Below, piece by piece: positions 6,934 to 16,331 of a stretch of DNA of 53,929 bases. Numbering within the stretch: position 1 is the stretch's first letter; each line of letters opens with the position of its first letter. The stretch lies in the sequence record SRR20825006_749. One strand, written 5' to 3'. The position numbers were made by a program, and so were the translations under genes. The notes below the pieces were generated by a model. It did no database searches and had not been told where the DNA came from. It worked only from the letters and a program-made list of their open reading frames with translations.

Positions 6934-7773
6934 TTAAGACCAGCTGGAATCCATTCTGGATGAGTCAAACAACGCGGTTATCTGCTCATGAAAACGGTCT
7001 CGATCGGCTTTTCTGTAGAGTACATAGGCCGGGAATGTGAATTCAGGGTATTCAGATTTGCGCTCTAATAACCCTGCCCGAATATGCTGCTCCACGACCC
7101 GCGTTCTGAAATAGCCGCTACCGCCATTTTCCAGAATGTAGTACAAGGCAAGTGGTCCCAGATTCACTGTGAGTTTAGCGCGTGAGAATTCCGGTAATGC
7201 CACATCATGCTGTTTTCTGAATTCTTCACCCCAGTCGATATAAACATAGGGCTCTGGCGAAACGTTTGAGGCCACCATGATCAGCTTTTCCTCAAGCAGT
7301 TCCTCCACTTGGATCCCCGGCCAGTACTCTGGTTGGTGGACCACAACAATATCCAGCACACCATGTTCAAGCTTTTGCATTAGGGAGTGACGTTCGTCGA
7401 TTTCGGCTCTGACAGCGAGTTCACTGTCGGCAATATTGAGTGTGTTCAGCCACTGCAGCATGACGGGACTCCACAGGCTGATTTCTCCGCCGATATTCAG
7501 AACCTGGCGAGTACCGGCTGGCAGAGGCAAGTCACGCTTCGCTGCTTCCCAGCTTTGTACCAGTTTGGAAGCATGTTCAATAAAACGCTGCCCATCCGCA
7601 GTCAGGCTGGCACCGGAACGATTTCTGATAAACAGTTTACAACCGAGCTGACCTTCCAGATTGTGCACTCGTGCTGTCACCGTCGTCTGAGTCACATGCA
7701 GCTTTTCCGCTGCCGCAATAAAGCTGCCGCTGCGGACAATTTCCAGAAAAGTACGGGCGAGATTGAGATCCAT
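6934..7773 (-). CDS. LysR-family transcriptional regulator
   Basis: N-terminal HTH (GSFIAAAEKLHVTQTTVTARVHNLEGQLGCKLFIR) plus substrate-binding domain; divergent from ccoN. Confidence 0.93.
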   Translation of the reverse strand: MDLNLARTFLEIVRSGSFIAAAEKLHVTQTTVTARVHNLEGQLGCKLFIRNRSGASLTADGQRFIEHASKLVQSWEAAKRDLPLPAGTRQVLNIGGEISLWSPVMLQWLNTLNIADSELAVRAEIDERHSLMQKLEHGVLDIVVVHQPEYWPGIQVEELLEEKLIMVASNVSPEPYVYIDWGEEFRKQHDVALPEFSRAKLTVNLGPLALYYILENGGSGYFRTRVVEQHIRAGLLERKSEYPEFTFPAYVLYRKADRDRFHEQITALFDSSRMDSSWS

Positions 7774-7974: not shown

Positions 7975-8056
7975 CACAAAAGCGTCCAGATTTATCAATG
8001 TGCCGTTCAGATTCGGCGATGTTGATCCGCGATCACCACAGATTAAGGTAAATTCG

Positions 8057-9481
8057 ATGCAATCCGTCTCAAAATACAATACTGACATCACTAAATGGTT
8101 TGTCGTGATGGCGAGTATTTATCTGGTACTGGGCACCGGGGTGGGTGTGTATATCGCCAGTGAACTGGCCTGGCCGATACTCAATTTTGATAATCCGTAT
8201 ATCAGTTTTGGCCGCCTCCGTCCTGTACATACCAACATCGTGGTTTACGGTTTTGGTGGGTCTGTACTGATGGCAACGGCCTACTATGTGGTGCAGCGAA
8301 CCTGCTATGTTCGCCTGTGGAGCGATAAACTGGCCTGGTTCACTTTCTGGGGATGGAACCTGTATGTGCTCGGCGCCATCATTACCCTGCCGCTCGGCTT
8401 CACCCAGGGGAAGGAATATGCCGAACTGGAATGGCCTTTCGATATTCTGCTGACAGCAGTCTGGCTGGTTTACAGCTTCAACTTCATGATGACGCTGCAC
8501 CAGCGGAAAGTCTCACATATCTACGTGGCTAACTGGTTTTTCCTGTCAATGATGATCATGTTCACCTATTTGCATGTGGTGAACAGCCTGTCGATCCCGG
8601 TCGAGTTATTTAAATCCTACTCCATTTTTGCCGGGGTGCAGGACGCGATGATTCAATGGTGGTGGGGTCACAACGCTATCGGTTTTTATCTGACCGCGGG
8701 CTTCCTGGGCATCATGTATTACTTCGTTCCCAAACAGGCAGAGCGTCCGGTTTATTCATATCGTTTATCTGTTATTCACTTCTGGGCTTTGATCTTTGGC
8801 TATGTCTGGCTTGGTTCTCACCATCTGCAATACACCGCCCTGCCTGACTGGACCGGTTCTCTGGGGGCTGCCATATCACTTGCCATGATTATTCCGTCCT
8901 GGGGGGGCGCCATCAACGGCATGTTCACATTGAGTGGTGCCTGGGACAAGCTAAGAACGGATTATATTTTACGTTTTCTGATTGTTTCACTGGCTTTCTA
9001 CGCCATGTCAACATTCGAAGGGCCAGTGATGGCATCAAAAACTGTGAATGCCCTGTCTCACTACACGGACTGGACCATCGGCCATGTTCACTCCGGCGCC
9101 CTTGGCTGGGTCGCCATGATATCTATCGGCGCGCTTTATCATATGGTTGAGAAGCTTTGGAATACCCGCCTGTACTCGGTAAAACTTGTGAATGCCCATT
9201 TCTGGCTTGCTACCGTGGGGACCGCAATCTACATCACATCAATGTGGGTTGCGGGTATCATGCAGGGACTCATGTGGCGGGCCTATGACAACTACGGCAA
9301 CCTGTCTTATACCTTTGTTGAGTCCGTTGCCCAAATGCATCCGTACTACGCTATTCGTGTTGTTGGTGGGTTTCTGTTTTTCCTGGGAGCCTGCGTGATG
9401 CTCTTCAATGTGCTTGCAACCATCAGTCAGGCGATAAGAGAATCCAGGGCTGGATATGTAGCAAGTACAGCGACAACATAA
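8057..9481 (+). CDS. ccoN: cbb3-type cytochrome c oxidase subunit I (orphan copy)
   Basis: [40 protein letters not shown] and [13 protein letters not shown] cover the heme/CuB ligands and the cross-link Tyr. ATG at 8057 follows AAGG. Confidence 0.95.
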
Positions 9482-9483
9482 AC

Positions 9484-9726
9484 ATGATGCATCAGCTTCT
9501 GTTTATTTTAGGTGATTCTCTAGCAGCAGCTCAGCTGACAGGTCTACTGGTTGATGTTGTCATTGTGAACGTATTAATTCTGGTGTCAAAAAGGGTGTTT
9601 TCCCCTGAGAATGAAGCGCGTTTCATGGAGGAAAGTCTTATTCCACTCGAAGATGACACTGAGGAAGAGAAACTACGGCGCCGGAGGCCTGCTGAACCCA
9701 GCCCGCGTGGATGTCTGGATGCCTGA
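9484..9726 (+). CDS. ccoQ: CcoQ-like small subunit
   Basis: One TM helix followed by FSPENEARFMEESLIPLEDD, which matches the CcoQ pattern F.EA..IPL.DD; starts 2 nt after ccoN. Confidence 0.6.
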   Translation: MMHQLLFILGDSLAAAQLTGLLVDVVIVNVLILVSKRVFSPENEARFMEESLIPLEDDTEEEKLRRRRPAEPSPRGCLDA

Positions 9727-9880
9727 AATTTGCTGAGATCCGGAGTTCAATAACTCAGAGCCGGTTTGTTCATAGGAAATGTTGAATAGTCATAAACCGG
9801 ACTTTGAAACTCATCTGAGCTTATCGGTCTGCATTGTTTATGTTCCGGTAGTTGAAATCATCGCCATCAGCGCTACAAAT

Positions 9881-9909
9881 TTGATTTGTCCCGGTTCCGG
9901 TCATATCAT
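9881..9909 (+). promoter_or_regulatory. Candidate sigma-70 promoter for the leader-czcCBA operon
   Basis: TTGATT (9881-9886), 17-nt spacer, TATCAT (9904-9909). Confidence 0.5.
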
Positions 9910-9937
9910 GGGTAAACTCATTCAATAAGTCAGTAAT

Positions 9938-10258
9938 GTGAAGCCGAATTTCTTTGTCACAATCAGTTTGCTTGTCTGCATGGTTTTTGCGACTGGTGCT
10001 TCGGCTTTTTTGCATTTGAACGAGCATCAGTATTCCGGTTCTGACCATCATCATTCAGCCGATTCTGAACACCAGCATGCCAATGGAACCACGCATGAAG
10101 CTGATCATGCCCATCATTTCAATCTGCATGTGGTGGGTGACCTGGTTGAGCATGACAGTATCAGCTTTATCAAGTCAGCTAATCTCACCTCCGGCGAAGT
10201 CATCACCCCGTTGGTATCACGCACCTACACGCCCCCTATTCCCCCACCCAACGCCTGA
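9938..10258 (+). CDS. Secreted His-rich leader protein (CzcI-like position) ending in PPIPPP; candidate arrest peptide
   Basis: GTG start, signal peptide ending in ASA, 13 His residues, C-terminus SRTYTPPIPPPNA; directly upstream of czcC. Confidence 0.75.
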   Translation: MKPNFFVTISLLVCMVFATGASAFLHLNEHQYSGSDHHHSADSEHQHANGTTHEADHAHHFNLHVVGDLVEHDSISFIKSANLTSGEVITPLVSRTYTPPIPPPNA

Positions 10259-10319
10259 ACCTGTAGCACTCAACCTTTTTTAACACGCTGAAAGCGTGAG
10301 AATTTGCTATGGGAATTCA
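10256..10319 (+). promoter_or_regulatory. Predicted RNA stem sequestering the czcC ribosome-binding site
   Basis: TGAA-CCTGTAGCA (10256-10268, begins at the leader stop codon) pairs with TGCTATGGG-aa-TTCA (10305-10319, contains the GGGA SD). Inner hairpin CACGCT-GAA-AGCGTG (10284-10298). Confidence 0.6.
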
Positions 10320-10321
10320 CC

Positions 10322-11596
10322 ATGAAAGTTTTAACTTTTTTGCGGTACACAGGACTTACTGTTGCCGTTTTTACCGGGCTGACCTCCGGTACGGCATTGG
10401 CTATTGAACCTGCTACCGCCGTTGATCGGACGCTGGCATCCAGTCCTGAACTGCAACTTTATCCTTATCATGTCCGGGCACTGGAAGCGGAATCATTACA
10501 GGCGGGTTTAAAGCCCAACCCGACTTTGGGTGTGGAACTGGAAAACGTCATGGGCACGGGGGATAGACGTGTTCTGGCCGGGCACGAACTCACCTTGTCT
10601 TTGAGTCAGGTACTGGAACTCGGAGGCAAGCGTGAGCGCCGGGTTGATGTCGTCGACAGACAATCAGCCGAATTACAGCGCGAGTTTGAAGTAAAGCGTC
10701 TGGATGTCGTTGCTGCCACGCTACGTGATTATTACGACGTCTTGCGTTTGCAACAGCTGCTGGAATGGAACCAGCGCCGCATTGCCTCTGAACAAGCTGC
10801 ACTACAGGTGATTCAAAAACGGGCCAATGCCGGCGTCGTTGGTGAAGCTGACCTGATGCGGATGCAGCTTCGCCTGGCCAAGTCAGAGTCCAAGCAGCAG
10901 ACACTCAATGCTCAGCATGAGCAGGCACTCAGAAGACTGGCTGCCAACTGGGCACAGGAGCCTGACTTCAACTCAGTGGATGGCAATATGGCCCGCCTGC
11001 CGGTCTTACCCGATGCCGCGCAACTTGAACAGGCTCTGCTTGAAACGCCGGATTATCTGCTGATCGTCGCCCAGACCCGAATCAATGAGGCGAGGCTATC
11101 ACTGGCTGAGGCAGAGCGCACAGCGAATGTCACTGTCGGCGCTGGAGTAAGGCGATTCGAAGCCAGTGATGATGTGGCTTTACTCTTCAATTTTTCCATG
11201 CCTTTGCAGTTCAATGACCGCAATCAGGGCAACATCGCCCGTGCACAGGTGCAATACCAGGAAAAACTGGCTCACCAGGAACTGCTGAAGACCCGGCTTG
11301 AGATCGCACTGAGCCGGATTCGGGCAACGATGCAGAATAACCTGGAGCAGGAAAAGCGCCTCAAACAACAACTTGAACCGGTAGCTCATTCTCTGCTCCA
11401 GGAAGTTGAGCGTGGATACAAGCTGGGTATCTATAACGTACTGCAATGGGTCGATGCGCAGGATGAGCTGTATGCCATAGAACGCAACATTATCGAAGCA
11501 CAGTACGCCATTCATCTGCAGTTTCTGGAACTGGAAAGACTCAGCGGCATGAGTCTGGTTACTTACGCCTCTTCCATCGCCGCTGATAAGGAATAA
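10322..11596 (+). CDS. czcC: TolC-family outer-membrane factor of a heavy-metal RND system
   Basis: Signal peptide, LSQVLELGGKR and MPLQFNDRNQGNI motifs; ATG at 10322 after GGGA. Confidence 0.88.
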   Translation: MKVLTFLRYTGLTVAVFTGLTSGTALAIEPATAVDRTLASSPELQLYPYHVRALEAESLQAGLKPNPTLGVELENVMGTGDRRVLAGHELTLSLSQVLELGGKRERRVDVVDRQSAELQREFEVKRLDVVAATLRDYYDVLRLQQLLEWNQRRIASEQAALQVIQKRANAGVVGEADLMRMQLRLAKSESKQQTLNAQHEQALRRLAANWAQEPDFNSVDGNMARLPVLPDAAQLEQALLETPDYLLIVAQTRINEARLSLAEAERTANVTVGAGVRRFEASDDVALLFNFSMPLQFNDRNQGNIARAQVQYQEKLAHQELLKTRLEIALSRIRATMQNNLEQEKRLKQQLEPVAHSLLQEVERGYKLGIYNVLQWVDAQDELYAIERNIIEAQYAIHLQFLELERLSGMSLVTYASSIAADKE

Positions 11597-11601
11597 ACAA
11601 C

Positions 11602-12822
11602 ATGAAATTTTATTTATTTTTACTGGCCCTGCTTTTTAATGCTTCTGTCTATGCCGCGGGCGGCCATGGTCATGATGACGCCGGGCATGAAGCGCCACCG
11701 GAAGGACCGCACGGCGGACGATTGTTGCAGAGTGATGACCTGAATCTTGAACTCACTATTTTTGAATCCGGTATTCCACCGGAAATGCGGATATTTCCCT
11801 ATCAACCTGATGGCAACCCGATTGCTCCGGAACAGATTGAAATGACCGTCACCCTCAACCGGACCGGGGGAGAGCAGGATCTGATCGACTTTACACCTGA
11901 AAACGACTACCTGTTGGGCGATCTGGAAATTGTTGAACCCCATTCGTTTGAAGTGGAAGTCTCTGCCAACTATCAGGATAAAAATTACCACTGGCACTTT
12001 GAGAGCTATGAGGGCCGTGCGGAAATTCCGGATCGCTTGCTGGCACTCTCAGGGGTCGAAACGGAAACCGCTGGCCCACAGACGATAACGCTGACCAAGA
12101 CTGTTTACGGCATTATCAGTAAAGCAGAAGACAGCGTATTTCATGTTCATGCCCCCTACCCCGGCATCGTTCAGTCGGTACAGGTCAACACTGGCGATAA
12201 AGTCAAAAAAGGCCAGCGTCTGCTGACCGTACTCAACCAGCAAACTTTGCAGACCTATAGCGTGACCAGCCCTGCTGCCGGTGAAATCACACAGCGTCCT
12301 GTTAAAAAAGGTGACCACACTGATATGGGCACCTTAGTTGAAGTCAGTGACTTATCCAAAGTCTGGGTTGAAATGTCGATGTTTCCACAGGATATCGAAG
12401 CGATCTCAAAAGGCATGAAGGTCAAAGTCAGTGATTTACATGGCGAACAATCGGCCGAGACTGAACTCAATTACCTGTCTCCACAGATGACCGGTGGCCA
12501 TATCGCCCGCGCCAGAGCCACGCTGAAAAACGCTGAGGGTAACTGGCGGCCCGGCATGCATGTGATTGCCAGGGTGGTCACCGAGAAAATCGAGGTCCCT
12601 TTGGCAGTCAGACGCTCTGCCTTACAGACATTTCGTGAAATGCCAGTGGTGTTTGCCCGATTCGGCAATGTGTTTGAGGTGAGAATGGTGCAGCTGGGAC
12701 AGCAGGACGATGAATACATTGAAGTCACCGGCGGACTGAAGCCCGGCACCGATTATGTCACTCAAAACAGCTATCTGCTCAAGGCCGAAGTCTTGAAAGA
12801 TGGCGCCAGCCACGACCACTAG
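11602..12822 (+). CDS. czcB: Heavy-metal RND periplasmic adaptor
   Basis: His-rich N-terminus, EGPHGGRLL, WRPGMHV and C-terminal GASHDH. Confidence 0.88.
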   Translation: MKFYLFLLALLFNASVYAAGGHGHDDAGHEAPPEGPHGGRLLQSDDLNLELTIFESGIPPEMRIFPYQPDGNPIAPEQIEMTVTLNRTGGEQDLIDFTPENDYLLGDLEIVEPHSFEVEVSANYQDKNYHWHFESYEGRAEIPDRLLALSGVETETAGPQTITLTKTVYGIISKAEDSVFHVHAPYPGIVQSVQVNTGDKVKKGQRLLTVLNQQTLQTYSVTSPAAGEITQRPVKKGDHTDMGTLVEVSDLSKVWVEMSMFPQDIEAISKGMKVKVSDLHGEQSAETELNYLSPQMTGGHIARARATLKNAEGNWRPGMHVIARVVTEKIEVPLAVRRSALQTFREMPVVFARFGNVFEVRMVQLGQQDDEYIEVTGGLKPGTDYVTQNSYLLKAEVLKDGASHDH

Positions 12823-15969
<3,147 letters not shown>

Positions 15970-15980
15970 GGATTGAGACT

Positions 15981-16331
15981 ATGTGGTATTACCTGACTAA
16001 GGTCATTGTCAGTGCTGTGCTGATTGTGGCGATCTCAGAAGTAGCAAAGCGAAGCTCCGTGCTGGGAGCCATTCTGGCCTCGGTACCACTGGTCTCAGTC
16101 ATTGCCATGATTTGGCTGTATCACGAAACCGGTGATACAGCCAAAATCAGCGCGCTGGCTACCAGCATTTTCTGGCTGGTCATTCCTTCTTTAGCTTTAT
16201 TTATCAGCTTACCTGTATTGCTAAAAGCGGGGGTTGGCTTTTACTTAAGTCTGCTGATTTCTATTGGGATAACGATTTTTTGTTATTACGGGATGCTTAC
16301 TGTGCTGAAATTGGCAGAAATCCAAGTCTAA
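15981..16331 (+). CDS. DUF3147-like small membrane protein
   Basis: ISEVAKRS and GAILASVPLVS motifs, four hydrophobic segments; starts 11 nt after czcA. Confidence 0.75.
   Translation: MWYYLTKVIVSAVLIVAISEVAKRSSVLGAILASVPLVSVIAMIWLYHETGDTAKISALATSIFWLVIPSLALFISLPVLLKAGVGFYLSLLISIGITIFCYYGMLTVLKLAEIQV

Follow-up and report, generated by a model that had tools for sequence, protein, structure and literature searches.

What controls a heavy-metal efflux operon when no regulator gene of the usual kind adjoins it? The question is raised by the window, that is, the whole 53,929-nucleotide stretch of DNA from sequence record SRR20825006_749, in which a czcCBA operon for a heavy-metal efflux (HME) pump of the resistance-nodulation-division (RND) type is headed by a small, histidine-rich open reading frame (ORF). 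Heavy-metal RND pumps are classically controlled by two-component systems or MerR-type regulators. In line with the first-pass annotation, which saw no MerR, ArsR or two-component regulator attached to the operon, genes of these kinds are absent from the 8 kb or so that flank it on each side in the window, and the sole regulator in the vicinity is a LysR gene (6934-7773, - strand), divergent from a COX1-family gene. Our comparisons point, on balance, to the ORF being a leader that probably acts in cis as a CutF-like, co-translationally exported nascent-chain metal sensor controlling the translation of czcCBA.

In the ORF list of the window, the leader runs from a GTG start at 9938 to the stop codon UGA at 10256-10258 (+ strand) and encodes 106 amino acids (aa). 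Its parts are as follows.

9938-10006, + strand: export signal, residues 1-23 (K2, hydrophobic FFVTISLLVCMVFATG, A-S-A), as read from the sequence and kept in the longer homologues
10007-10027, + strand: FLHLNEH motif, residues 24-30, with A23, H26 and H30 as invariant columns and X-X-His as the predicted mature N-terminus
10028-10105, + strand: His/Asp/Glu-rich stretch of varying length, residues 31-56
10106-10153, + strand: conserved candidate metal site HAHHFNLHVVGDLVEH, residues 57-72, with H57, H59, H60, L63 and D68 invariant
10154-10210, + strand: hypervariable spacer segment of constant length, residues 73-91
10211-10255, + strand: conserved tail LVSRTYTPPIPPPNA, residues 92-106, with the terminal PPP codons at 10241-10249

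The translation bears out the 13 His residues, the absence of CxxC and the proline tail that had been described for this leader, and the N-terminus resembles the signal peptide described for it. The histidines are H26, 30, 37, 38, 39, 45, 47, 53, 57, 59, 60, 64 and 72; the sole Cys, C14, lies within the hydrophobic N-terminus, hence there is no CxxC; and the C-terminus reads RTYTPPIPPPNA. No Shine-Dalgarno (SD) sequence is visible upstream of the leader start. Across 21 related loci (10 from species genomes and 11 from metagenomes, nearly all Methylophaga), the start codon at this position is mostly GTG, with ATG in L007 and TTG in L002, L009, L010 and L021. Many database entries begin the leader at the internal Met15, yet the translated N-terminal extension is conserved. 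Because GTG, ATG or TTG occupies one and the same position and the extension is conserved, the GTG at 9938 is the true start, and it restores a signal-peptide-like N-terminus of Lys, about 16 hydrophobic residues and A-x-A. A weak GTG/TTG start without an SD suits a regulatory ORF more than a periplasmic protein made in large amounts.

We infer signal-peptide cleavage after A23, from the N-terminus judged by eye and from the helix modelled by AlphaFold2 (AF2). The AF2 model of the leader (42-row alignment; mean predicted local distance difference test score, pLDDT, 59.8) contains a confident helix at residues 5-33 alone, with residues 34-106 lacking structure. If the chain is cut after A-S-A23, a His stands invariantly at mature position 3 (residues F24-L25-H26, 10007-10015), including in the distant members with AYMH, TYIH and SVAH; we take this X-X-His to resemble the amino-terminal Cu(II)/Ni(II)-binding (ATCUN) motif. 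Other readings of the ORF were rejected. An ATG-TGA 'start-stop' that overlaps the GTG start is not kept across loci, a lipoprotein is contradicted by the replacement of C14 by Ser in some members and by the Val, Ile or Thr that precedes it, and a spurious ORF is contradicted by the homologues and by codon-level conservation. A CnrY-like anti-sigma factor was likewise dismissed, there being no extracytoplasmic function (ECF) sigma gene nearby.

The leader ORF is a real, conserved gene. A word-indexed search returned 41 homologues of 83-144 aa, and a full phmmer scan of 1.84 billion representatives gave seven matches, six of them new and more distant; wherever the organism of a homologue is named, it is Methylophaga, and the family has no match in Pfam or NCBIfam. 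In 19 of the 21 related loci the leader lies directly 5' of a CzcC orthologue, followed by CzcB and CzcA where the DNA reaches that far; the contigs of the other two (L015 and L018) end less than 150 nt past the leader, with the conserved spacer still present. Conservation within the family is concentrated in two islands, HxHHFNLHVxGDLVEH and YxPPIPPPNA. Given in full, the first comprises A-F-L-H-x-x-E-H, immediately behind the predicted cleavage site, and, at residues 56-72, (D/E)HAHHFNLHVxGDLVEH; the second is L-x-S-R-x-Y-x-P-P-I-P-P-P-N-A-stop. In 16 codon-aligned loci (L006 and L011 were left out), Y97, P99, P102-P104, N105 and A106 are constant throughout, while their codons are not: P99 is encoded by four different codons, P102 and P103 by three each and R95 by three Arg codons, the Tyr codons vary, and the fixed residues of the HxHH site show the same synonymous variation. 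Residues that stay fixed despite synonymous change indicate that selection acts on the peptide and not on the RNA. Between the islands, positions 73-91 each hold 2-7 (mostly 5-7) different residues across the same loci.

The segment that varies so freely in sequence does not vary in length. Counted from H57, which opens HxHH, to P102, which opens the terminal PPP, the distance is exactly 45 residues in all 43 proteins that could be scored; 47 were examined, and in the other four either the tail or the His motif deviates. AFLH and HxHH, by contrast, stand 25 to 38 residues apart. A hypervariable segment of constant length looks like a ruler.

The second element of the locus is the RNA between the leader and czcC, where the stop codon of one and the SD of the other may be joined in a clamp built from three parts.

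10256-10268, + strand: 5' clamp arm UGAACCUGUAGCA, consisting of the stop codon and ACCUGUAGCA, a pyrimidine-rich anti-SD
10284-10298, + strand: inner hairpin CACGC-UGAAA-GCGUG
10305-10319, + strand: 3' clamp arm UGCUAUGGG-AA-UUCA over the czcC SD GGGA (10311-10314)

The SD lies seven bases before the ATG of czcC at 10322, and UAUGGGA is nearly invariant across the spacers. The pairing of a stop-codon arm over this SD had been proposed in the first-pass annotation, and the minimum free energy (MFE) structure of 10256-10324 is this clamp (-17.7 kcal/mol, z -3.43, with none of 200 dinucleotide shuffles as stable); only the 3' arm had been placed one base off. The set compared comprises 15 distinct spacers of 63-68 nt, all U-rich, and in every one the MFE structure pairs the first 4-13 nt from the stop codon with positions -20 to -1 of the czcC AUG, the SD included. 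Their z-scores are -3.43, -3.41, -2.76, -3.59, -2.21, -1.72, -3.50, -3.49, -0.56, -1.93, -2.63, -2.22, -2.32, -4.20 and -1.73 (mean -2.65, range -0.56 to -4.20), with 11 of the 15 at or below -2.2. The stem and the prolines to which the earlier idea was tied are thus both conserved, the clamp in 15/15 spacers and P99 and P102-P104 in all 16 codon-aligned loci.

The stem covariation that had been suggested as a check is found in part. The inner hairpin, proposed at the same coordinates in the first-pass annotation, has 94.7% of its cells paired and two double-change pairs (CG 7 / UA 5; AU 12 / GC 3). Covariation is also seen between the middle base of the stop codon and base -2 of the AUG (GC 8, AU 4, GU 1, other 2; n=15), such that a UGA stop accompanies ..UCAUG and a UAA stop accompanies ..UUAUG. 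The outer anti-SD:SD pairs, for their part, hardly vary. In the free mRNA the SD is predicted to be unpaired with a probability of 0.09, which rises to 0.27, 0.37 and 0.43 when the RNA starts at +4, +7 and +13 from the first base of the stop, truncations that mimic ribosomes with P103, P104 and A106, respectively, in the P-site. An SD-shielding spacer stem-loop, as the CutF mechanism has it, is therewith predicted by computation. The codons of Ile101-Pro102, AUUCCC (10238-10243), are exactly complementary to GGGAAU (10311-10316) at the czcC SD, so that the coding tail is a second possible anti-SD, which a ribosome on the Pro codons would displace as well. A search of 9700-10450 against Rfam returned only sub-threshold archaeal snoRNA noise.

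Similar clamps are found with other sequences. Of five Methylophaga genomes, four contain the leader once; in M. pinxianii a further czcCBA is present, headed by a further leader copy with 37% identity (L057:1935-2255, the divergent paralogue, and L055:7001-7324). In the paralogue, 11 bp form between UAA-UUCCAUAAC and GUUAUGGAGUU, the latter including the SD GGAG (z -4.75). A further locus, L060, has a leader ORF 5' of a czcC homologue that keeps HHHCPNC (a CxxC) and passes the cut-off of the DUF2946 family (PF11162) with 25.3 versus 23.7 bits; there UAACUCCC pairs with GGGAGUUA, setting the stop codon plus 5 nt against a GGGAG SD (z -6.0). These two clamps, different in sequence, are independent support for the clamp. 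The L060 family counts six proteins, one of them named from Methylohalomonas, and has the tail APPTPPPN[LI]; it matches the Methylophaga leader family over the last 15 residues only (hhalign probability 90-93%), the remainder being not alignable. The Methylophaga family thus shares its tail and its stop:SD clamp with the L060-type leaders, which, unlike it, retain CxxC and are DUF2946-positive. Read from these alignments, the Methylophaga leaders would be either a strongly diverged DUF2946 branch, with CxxC swapped for HxHH, or a convergent solution.

As a plausible mechanism, a plain sigma-70 promoter would transcribe the leader-czcCBA operon, and the nascent leader would be threaded through SecYEG during its synthesis. 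With the ribosome at PPIPPP, the HxHH..H cluster would be just out on the periplasmic side, given about 30 residues in the tunnel and about 15-17 across the membrane. A divalent metal bound to this cluster and to the His already exported might then prolong a polyproline pause that would otherwise be resolved by elongation factor P (EF-P) and the pull of translocation; the metal would most likely be Zn, Co, Cd or Ni, a guess made because the pump is of the CzcA type. A ribosome stalled on codons 103-106 or on the stop would cover about 10259-10268, which is the 5' clamp arm, whereupon the SD at 10311-10314 would be freed and czcC, with the coupled czcB and czcA, translated. When metal is scarce, the leader would be finished fast, the clamp would re-form and synthesis of the pump would stay low. 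That metal switches the operon on is assumed here, from physiology and from the analogy with CutF.

How does this leader relate to known ones? CutF of Rhodobacter capsulatus (cutFOG) is described as cis-acting and dependent on the signal recognition particle (SRP) and Sec, with a Cu-dependent pause at PPP by which EF-P is overridden and the stem over the SD is opened (PMC9973294; 10.1101/2025.02.05.636593). It has 45 residues from CxxxC to the Pro motif, read by its authors as tunnel length plus membrane width (PMC9973294), and its tail PEPEGPPPRL amounts to PPP-x-x-stop (10.1101/2025.02.05.636593). The leader resembles it as a small Sec-exported first ORF with a metal motif about 45 residues from PPP, two residues and a stop, followed by a short spacer in which a stem-loop covers the SD of the gene behind it, a layout in which no dedicated transcription factor is needed. 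It also agrees with the CutF-like rule set of PMC9973294 in these features: 106 aa, PPIPPP in the last eight residues, K plus 16 hydrophobic residues plus ASA, and czcC 63 nt downstream. Unlike CutF, the leader offers His ligands only (HxHH..H versus CxxxC), ends in YxPPIPPPNA instead of PEPEGPPPRL, precedes a CzcA-type RND pump instead of a multicopper oxidase, has no detected homology to it and is known from sequence alone.

CruR (Bp2923) of Bordetella pertussis is likewise an exported ORF heading a metal operon with a conserved distance from metal motif to C-terminal Pro, namely 45 residues from CXXC to RAPP, a spacing that is needed for function and kept in over 2000 DUF2946 proteins (PMC9426467); the ruler of the leader is analogous to, not identical with, these 45 intervening residues. 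DUF2946 is defined by CXXC and RAPP, both absent from the leader, which has HxHH at the place corresponding to CXXC and, in place of RAPP, the tail R-T-Y-T-P-P-I-P-P-P-N-A with R95 and the prolines invariant. The window leader has no DUF2946 match at E <= 1 and falls short of the gathering score of 23.7 bits, and none of five Methylophaga genomes contains a DUF2946 protein above the cut-off. Unlike the proposed clamp, CruR represses an importer, by way of Rho-dependent termination across a spacer of 162 nt (PMC9426467). CzcI and CzcI2 of Cupriavidus metallidurans pMOL30 are, like the leader, small exported His-containing proteins encoded directly 5' of czcC; unlike it, CzcI carries CGVC and a degenerate RAPDRP and has no PP tail, and pMOL30 CzcI aligns with the leader family at an hhalign probability of 6.1%, over 22 signal-peptide residues only. 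By sequence, then, the leader is not a DUF2946 or CzcI member. The Sec-monitoring arrest peptides (SecM, VemP, MifM and the RAPP-type ApdA/ApdP) share with it an exported or membrane-targeted chain whose arrest opens a downstream SD-hiding stem, and, as far as the available accounts go, differ from it in sensing translocation activity instead of metal, in their arrest motifs and in having no tie to metal pumps.

Leaders of this general design are common before czcC homologues. We sampled 300 gammaproteobacterial genomes, of which 38 had a match; 30 loci were fetched, and two from unpublished genomes were left out (n=28). In 22 of the 28, a His-rich ORF (>=5 His) with a hydrophobic N-terminus and a PP-containing tail lies 5' of the czcC homologue; the remaining six have none, are unclear, lack upstream DNA or have a CzcI-like ORF. 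The terminal PPxPPP that had been suggested as the feature to survey occurs, as PPxPPPN[AL], in three, and most Pro-tailed leaders end otherwise, with RAPP or RGPP in 11, a (R/Q)PPI[A/S/V]-like tail in seven and HAPPAIPA in one. Ten of the 11 RAPP/RGPP leaders have at most one Cys, and none of the five that were tested reaches the DUF2946 cut-off. One class (L061, L063, L067, L068, L072, L076, L078, L079, L081 and L086; 123-149 aa, 0-1 Cys, 6-15 His) combines two hydrophobic segments, the first of them N-terminal, with an LHLHxH-type His motif between them and the tail (S/T)PPLRAPP(x)1-3; from their sequences these look like His-only RAPP leaders before czc-type pumps.

The first-pass annotation knew of no description of such a mechanism for czc operons, which is too strong: CutF-like leaders before CusC/CzcC-type genes have already been catalogued (PMC9973294). 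That paper lists 5,334 CutF-like proteins, whose commonest downstream neighbour is OEP (CusC/CzcC/SilC), places His-only clusters (14 and 17) next to HupE/UreJ, and has CzcI and CzcI2 among the CutF-like proteins in a cluster without the Pro motif (PMC9973294). Our literature searches turned up no experiment on a leader of this kind in front of a czc pump. What seems new here is a His-only, non-RAPP, Pfam-negative leader family tied to a CzcA-type pump, as part of a wider pattern before czcC genes, and not a new principle.

A number of findings weigh against a CutF-like sensor and have to be set beside those that favour it. As to descent, DUF2946 hits are obtained for only four of 42 family members, all of them sub-threshold (best E 0.0037; P0044, 16.3 bits), the family aligns with 28 DUF2946 proteins (drawn from 52 positive genomes among 401 sampled) at an hhalign probability of 1.1%, and no homology to DUF2946, CutF-type proteins or CzcI was detected beyond the signal peptide or the 15-residue tail. 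The current CutF model generates its pulling force by cysteine/disulfide chemistry (10.1101/2025.02.05.636593), and a His-only peptide has no cysteine counterpart, so that the sign of the response is not derivable. For CzcI of C. metallidurans, the positional analogue, a periplasmic action on the pump itself has been reported (PMC10127602). That the leader binds metal, is exported, stalls the ribosome and acts in cis is, on every count, what we infer. The two closest relatives have altered tails: P0001, 98% identical, ends in PPISPPNA, and a metagenome contig that is 97-99% identical to the window around the leader has an in-frame 36-nt deletion (12 codons; L011:2740-2790) that removes LVSRTYTPPIPP and leaves the tail EVITPPNA*, with spacer and czcC intact. 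These could be regulatory variants or assembly artefacts. In one lineage (L004:638-2829, equal to L014), a DUF4118-HisKA histidine kinase and an OmpR-type response regulator lie directly 5' of the leader on the same strand; the pair may add a transcriptional layer in that Methylophaga lineage only.

The outer stem, too, has its weak points. Its UCCU:GGGA pairs are conserved, hardly vary and carry no covariation signal, there is little strict covariation in the outer stem altogether, and RNAalifold on the 15 spacers returned the inner hairpin only, without recovering the outer stem. After this result, two named pairing registers and an arm-swap test were used for it, in which the duplex with the locus's own arm averages -11.21 kcal/mol versus -8.99 kcal/mol with the arm of another locus, at a p value (0.0002; 20,000 permutations) that is inflated by the relatedness of the loci. 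Shuffling the 20-nt 5' arm keeps the SD mostly paired (0.15 vs 0.09), and shuffles at or below the native value make up <=1% in only one of the 15 spacers and <=8% in six. This control gives no sign that masking of the SD depends on the order of the 5' arm, and it counts against a strong claim; the arm is pyrimidine-rich in any order, and the outcome is due in part to AUUCCC, which also complements GGGAAU.

Could the leader instead be a CzcI-like periplasmic protein that acts in trans, restraining CzcCBA or serving it as metal chaperone or buffer, while the stop:SD pairing is plain coupling that keeps leader and pump in stoichiometry? It occupies the position of czcI, has 13 His and an export signal, and CzcI is described as a periplasmic quencher of CzcCBA (PMC10127602) and, in A. 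baumannii, as a zinc chaperone (10.1101/2020.10.20.348086); the close relatives with altered tails suit this idea as well, and coupling through the clamp needs no stall. Yet apart from the signal peptide the two have no sequence relation, the leader has no predicted fold, and its middle is hypervariable and nevertheless constant in length. The part of the leader that is kept best is its last 10 residues, with PPP-N-A-stop, the start codon is weak and has no SD, and the tail motif and clamp recur in a DUF2946 leader that otherwise looks unrelated. On this evidence we judge a trans-acting protein rather unlikely, while taking it seriously.

The clamp alone would also account for coupling in a leader that senses nothing, where any upstream translation is enough to open the clamp, the histidines are incidental or have some other use, and regulation lies elsewhere, for example with a distant regulator; the two-component system adjacent in one lineage and a His-based response whose direction is not derivable from the sequence speak for this. 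It leaves unexplained, however, the HxHH..H island, the 45-residue ruler, the amino-acid selection on PPIPPPNA and the His-rich, Pro-tailed exported leaders at 22 of 28 czcC homologues, and we regard it as improbable. Still less credible, to the point of being very improbable, is attenuation of the CruR type, in which metal perception by the nascent leader would control Rho-dependent termination in the spacer (as described for CruR in PMC9426467) instead of access to the SD: the spacer is 63-68 nt long, U-rich and structured, versus 162 nt in cruR-bfrG, no terminator-like site was found in this region of the window, and the geometry ties the stop codon to the SD. A CutF-like sensor is favoured by the ruler, the selection on the tail, a clamp with some covariation, the recurrence of the design in a paralogue and in a relative positive for DUF2946, and the lack of a conserved regulator. 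The earlier proposal of a His-based analogue of CutF and CruR that gates the pump through a non-RAPP tail is to this extent supported by the comparison, with metal sensing and stalling still deduced.

A broader proposal, which we put forward tentatively and would stop just short of calling probable, is that of a transcription-factor-free sensor with His ligands: periplasmic Zn, Co, Cd or Ni would be read by HxHH..H 45 residues behind the peptidyl-transferase centre during threading through SecYEG, prolonging the PPIPPP pause and melting the clamp. Methylophaga would then represent one of at least three tail classes (RAPP, RPPI[A/S] and PPxPPPN) that together head most gammaproteobacterial czcC-type operons, and translational arrest would be a main and largely overlooked control of efflux. 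If this is true, a whole genus and, by the survey, many Gammaproteobacteria control RND pumps through a leader that reports periplasmic metal to the ribosome, and the CutF/CruR principle extends from copper and cysteine to divalent cations and histidine. With its 45-residue ruler, PPP-N-A-stop and 63-nt clamp, the locus would then also lend itself, as a clean natural system, to asking how a ligand bound outside the membrane affects the peptidyl-transferase centre. Because small leader ORFs are annotated as hypothetical or cut to an internal ATG, this regulation of operons is missed by annotation. The RefSeq record of a 221-kb plasmid of M. pinxianii is a case in point: one leader-czcCBA unit lies on it, beside insertion sequence (IS) elements and a RepB gene, and the leader is a 'hypothetical protein' called from an internal ATG. 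Its location on a plasmid beside IS elements means that the leader-czcCBA unit is mobile.

The order OEP, adaptor and CzcA-type RND protein in the window is that of an HME-RND czcCBA operon, preceded by a candidate promoter.

9881-9909, + strand: sigma-70-like promoter, TTGATT (9881-9886), 17-nt spacer and TATCAT (9904-9909), with 9 of 12 consensus matches
10322-11596, + strand: czcC-like outer-membrane factor (OEP, E 4.9e-32), its ATGAAA start conserved in related loci
11602-12822, + strand: czcB-like periplasmic adaptor with a His-rich N-terminus
12832-15969, + strand: CzcA-type HME-RND pump (TIGR00914, 1511 bits; CusA/CzcA family)

The RND protein is 58% identical to CzcA of pMOL30 over its full length (1041 residues) and shares with it the DFG..DGAV..VEN stretch, which we take to bear on divalent cations. 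The promoter hexamers (TTGAtT-17-TAcCAT) are kept in 15 of 15 distinct loci while the sequence between them varies, and therefore no conserved operator is evident. No regulator conserved beside the leader-czcCBA unit was found across the loci, where the genes 5' of the unit differ.

Window and L011-L013: COX1-like and LysR genes
L003: LuxR-type response regulator, opposite strand
L005: GGDEF-EAL gene
L006: ATP-binding cassette (ABC)/HlyD set
L007: dehydrogenase gene
L008: major facilitator superfamily (MFS) gene
L009: GreA/Rnk genes

In L006, a chromosome-level metagenome-assembled genome, the Pro codons of the leader contain a run of eight C (L006:3280-3335); frame 0 gives the tail YTPPSSPAQRLIL and frame +1 gives PPLPPPNA. 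The out-of-frame tail is probably a homopolymer sequencing error, and it could be a real frameshift. RNA contigs cover the locus in pieces: one contig, from a run guessed to be RNA, bridges 10099-10501, and RNA-Seq contigs cover 10268-10469 and 9956-10110, a coverage uninformative on transcript ends, levels or regulation. Upstream of the leader in the window, 8000-9726 holds a lone COX1-family gene (493 aa), divergent from the LysR gene, and behind it an 80-aa ORF that weakly resembles FixQ; neither a CcoO nor a CcoP partner is seen next to the COX1-family gene. Downstream, 12 nt past czcA, begins a gene for a 116-aa membrane protein (15981-16331; NCBIfam PRK09272.1-2, 145.8 bits, above cut-off), which may be the fifth gene of the operon.

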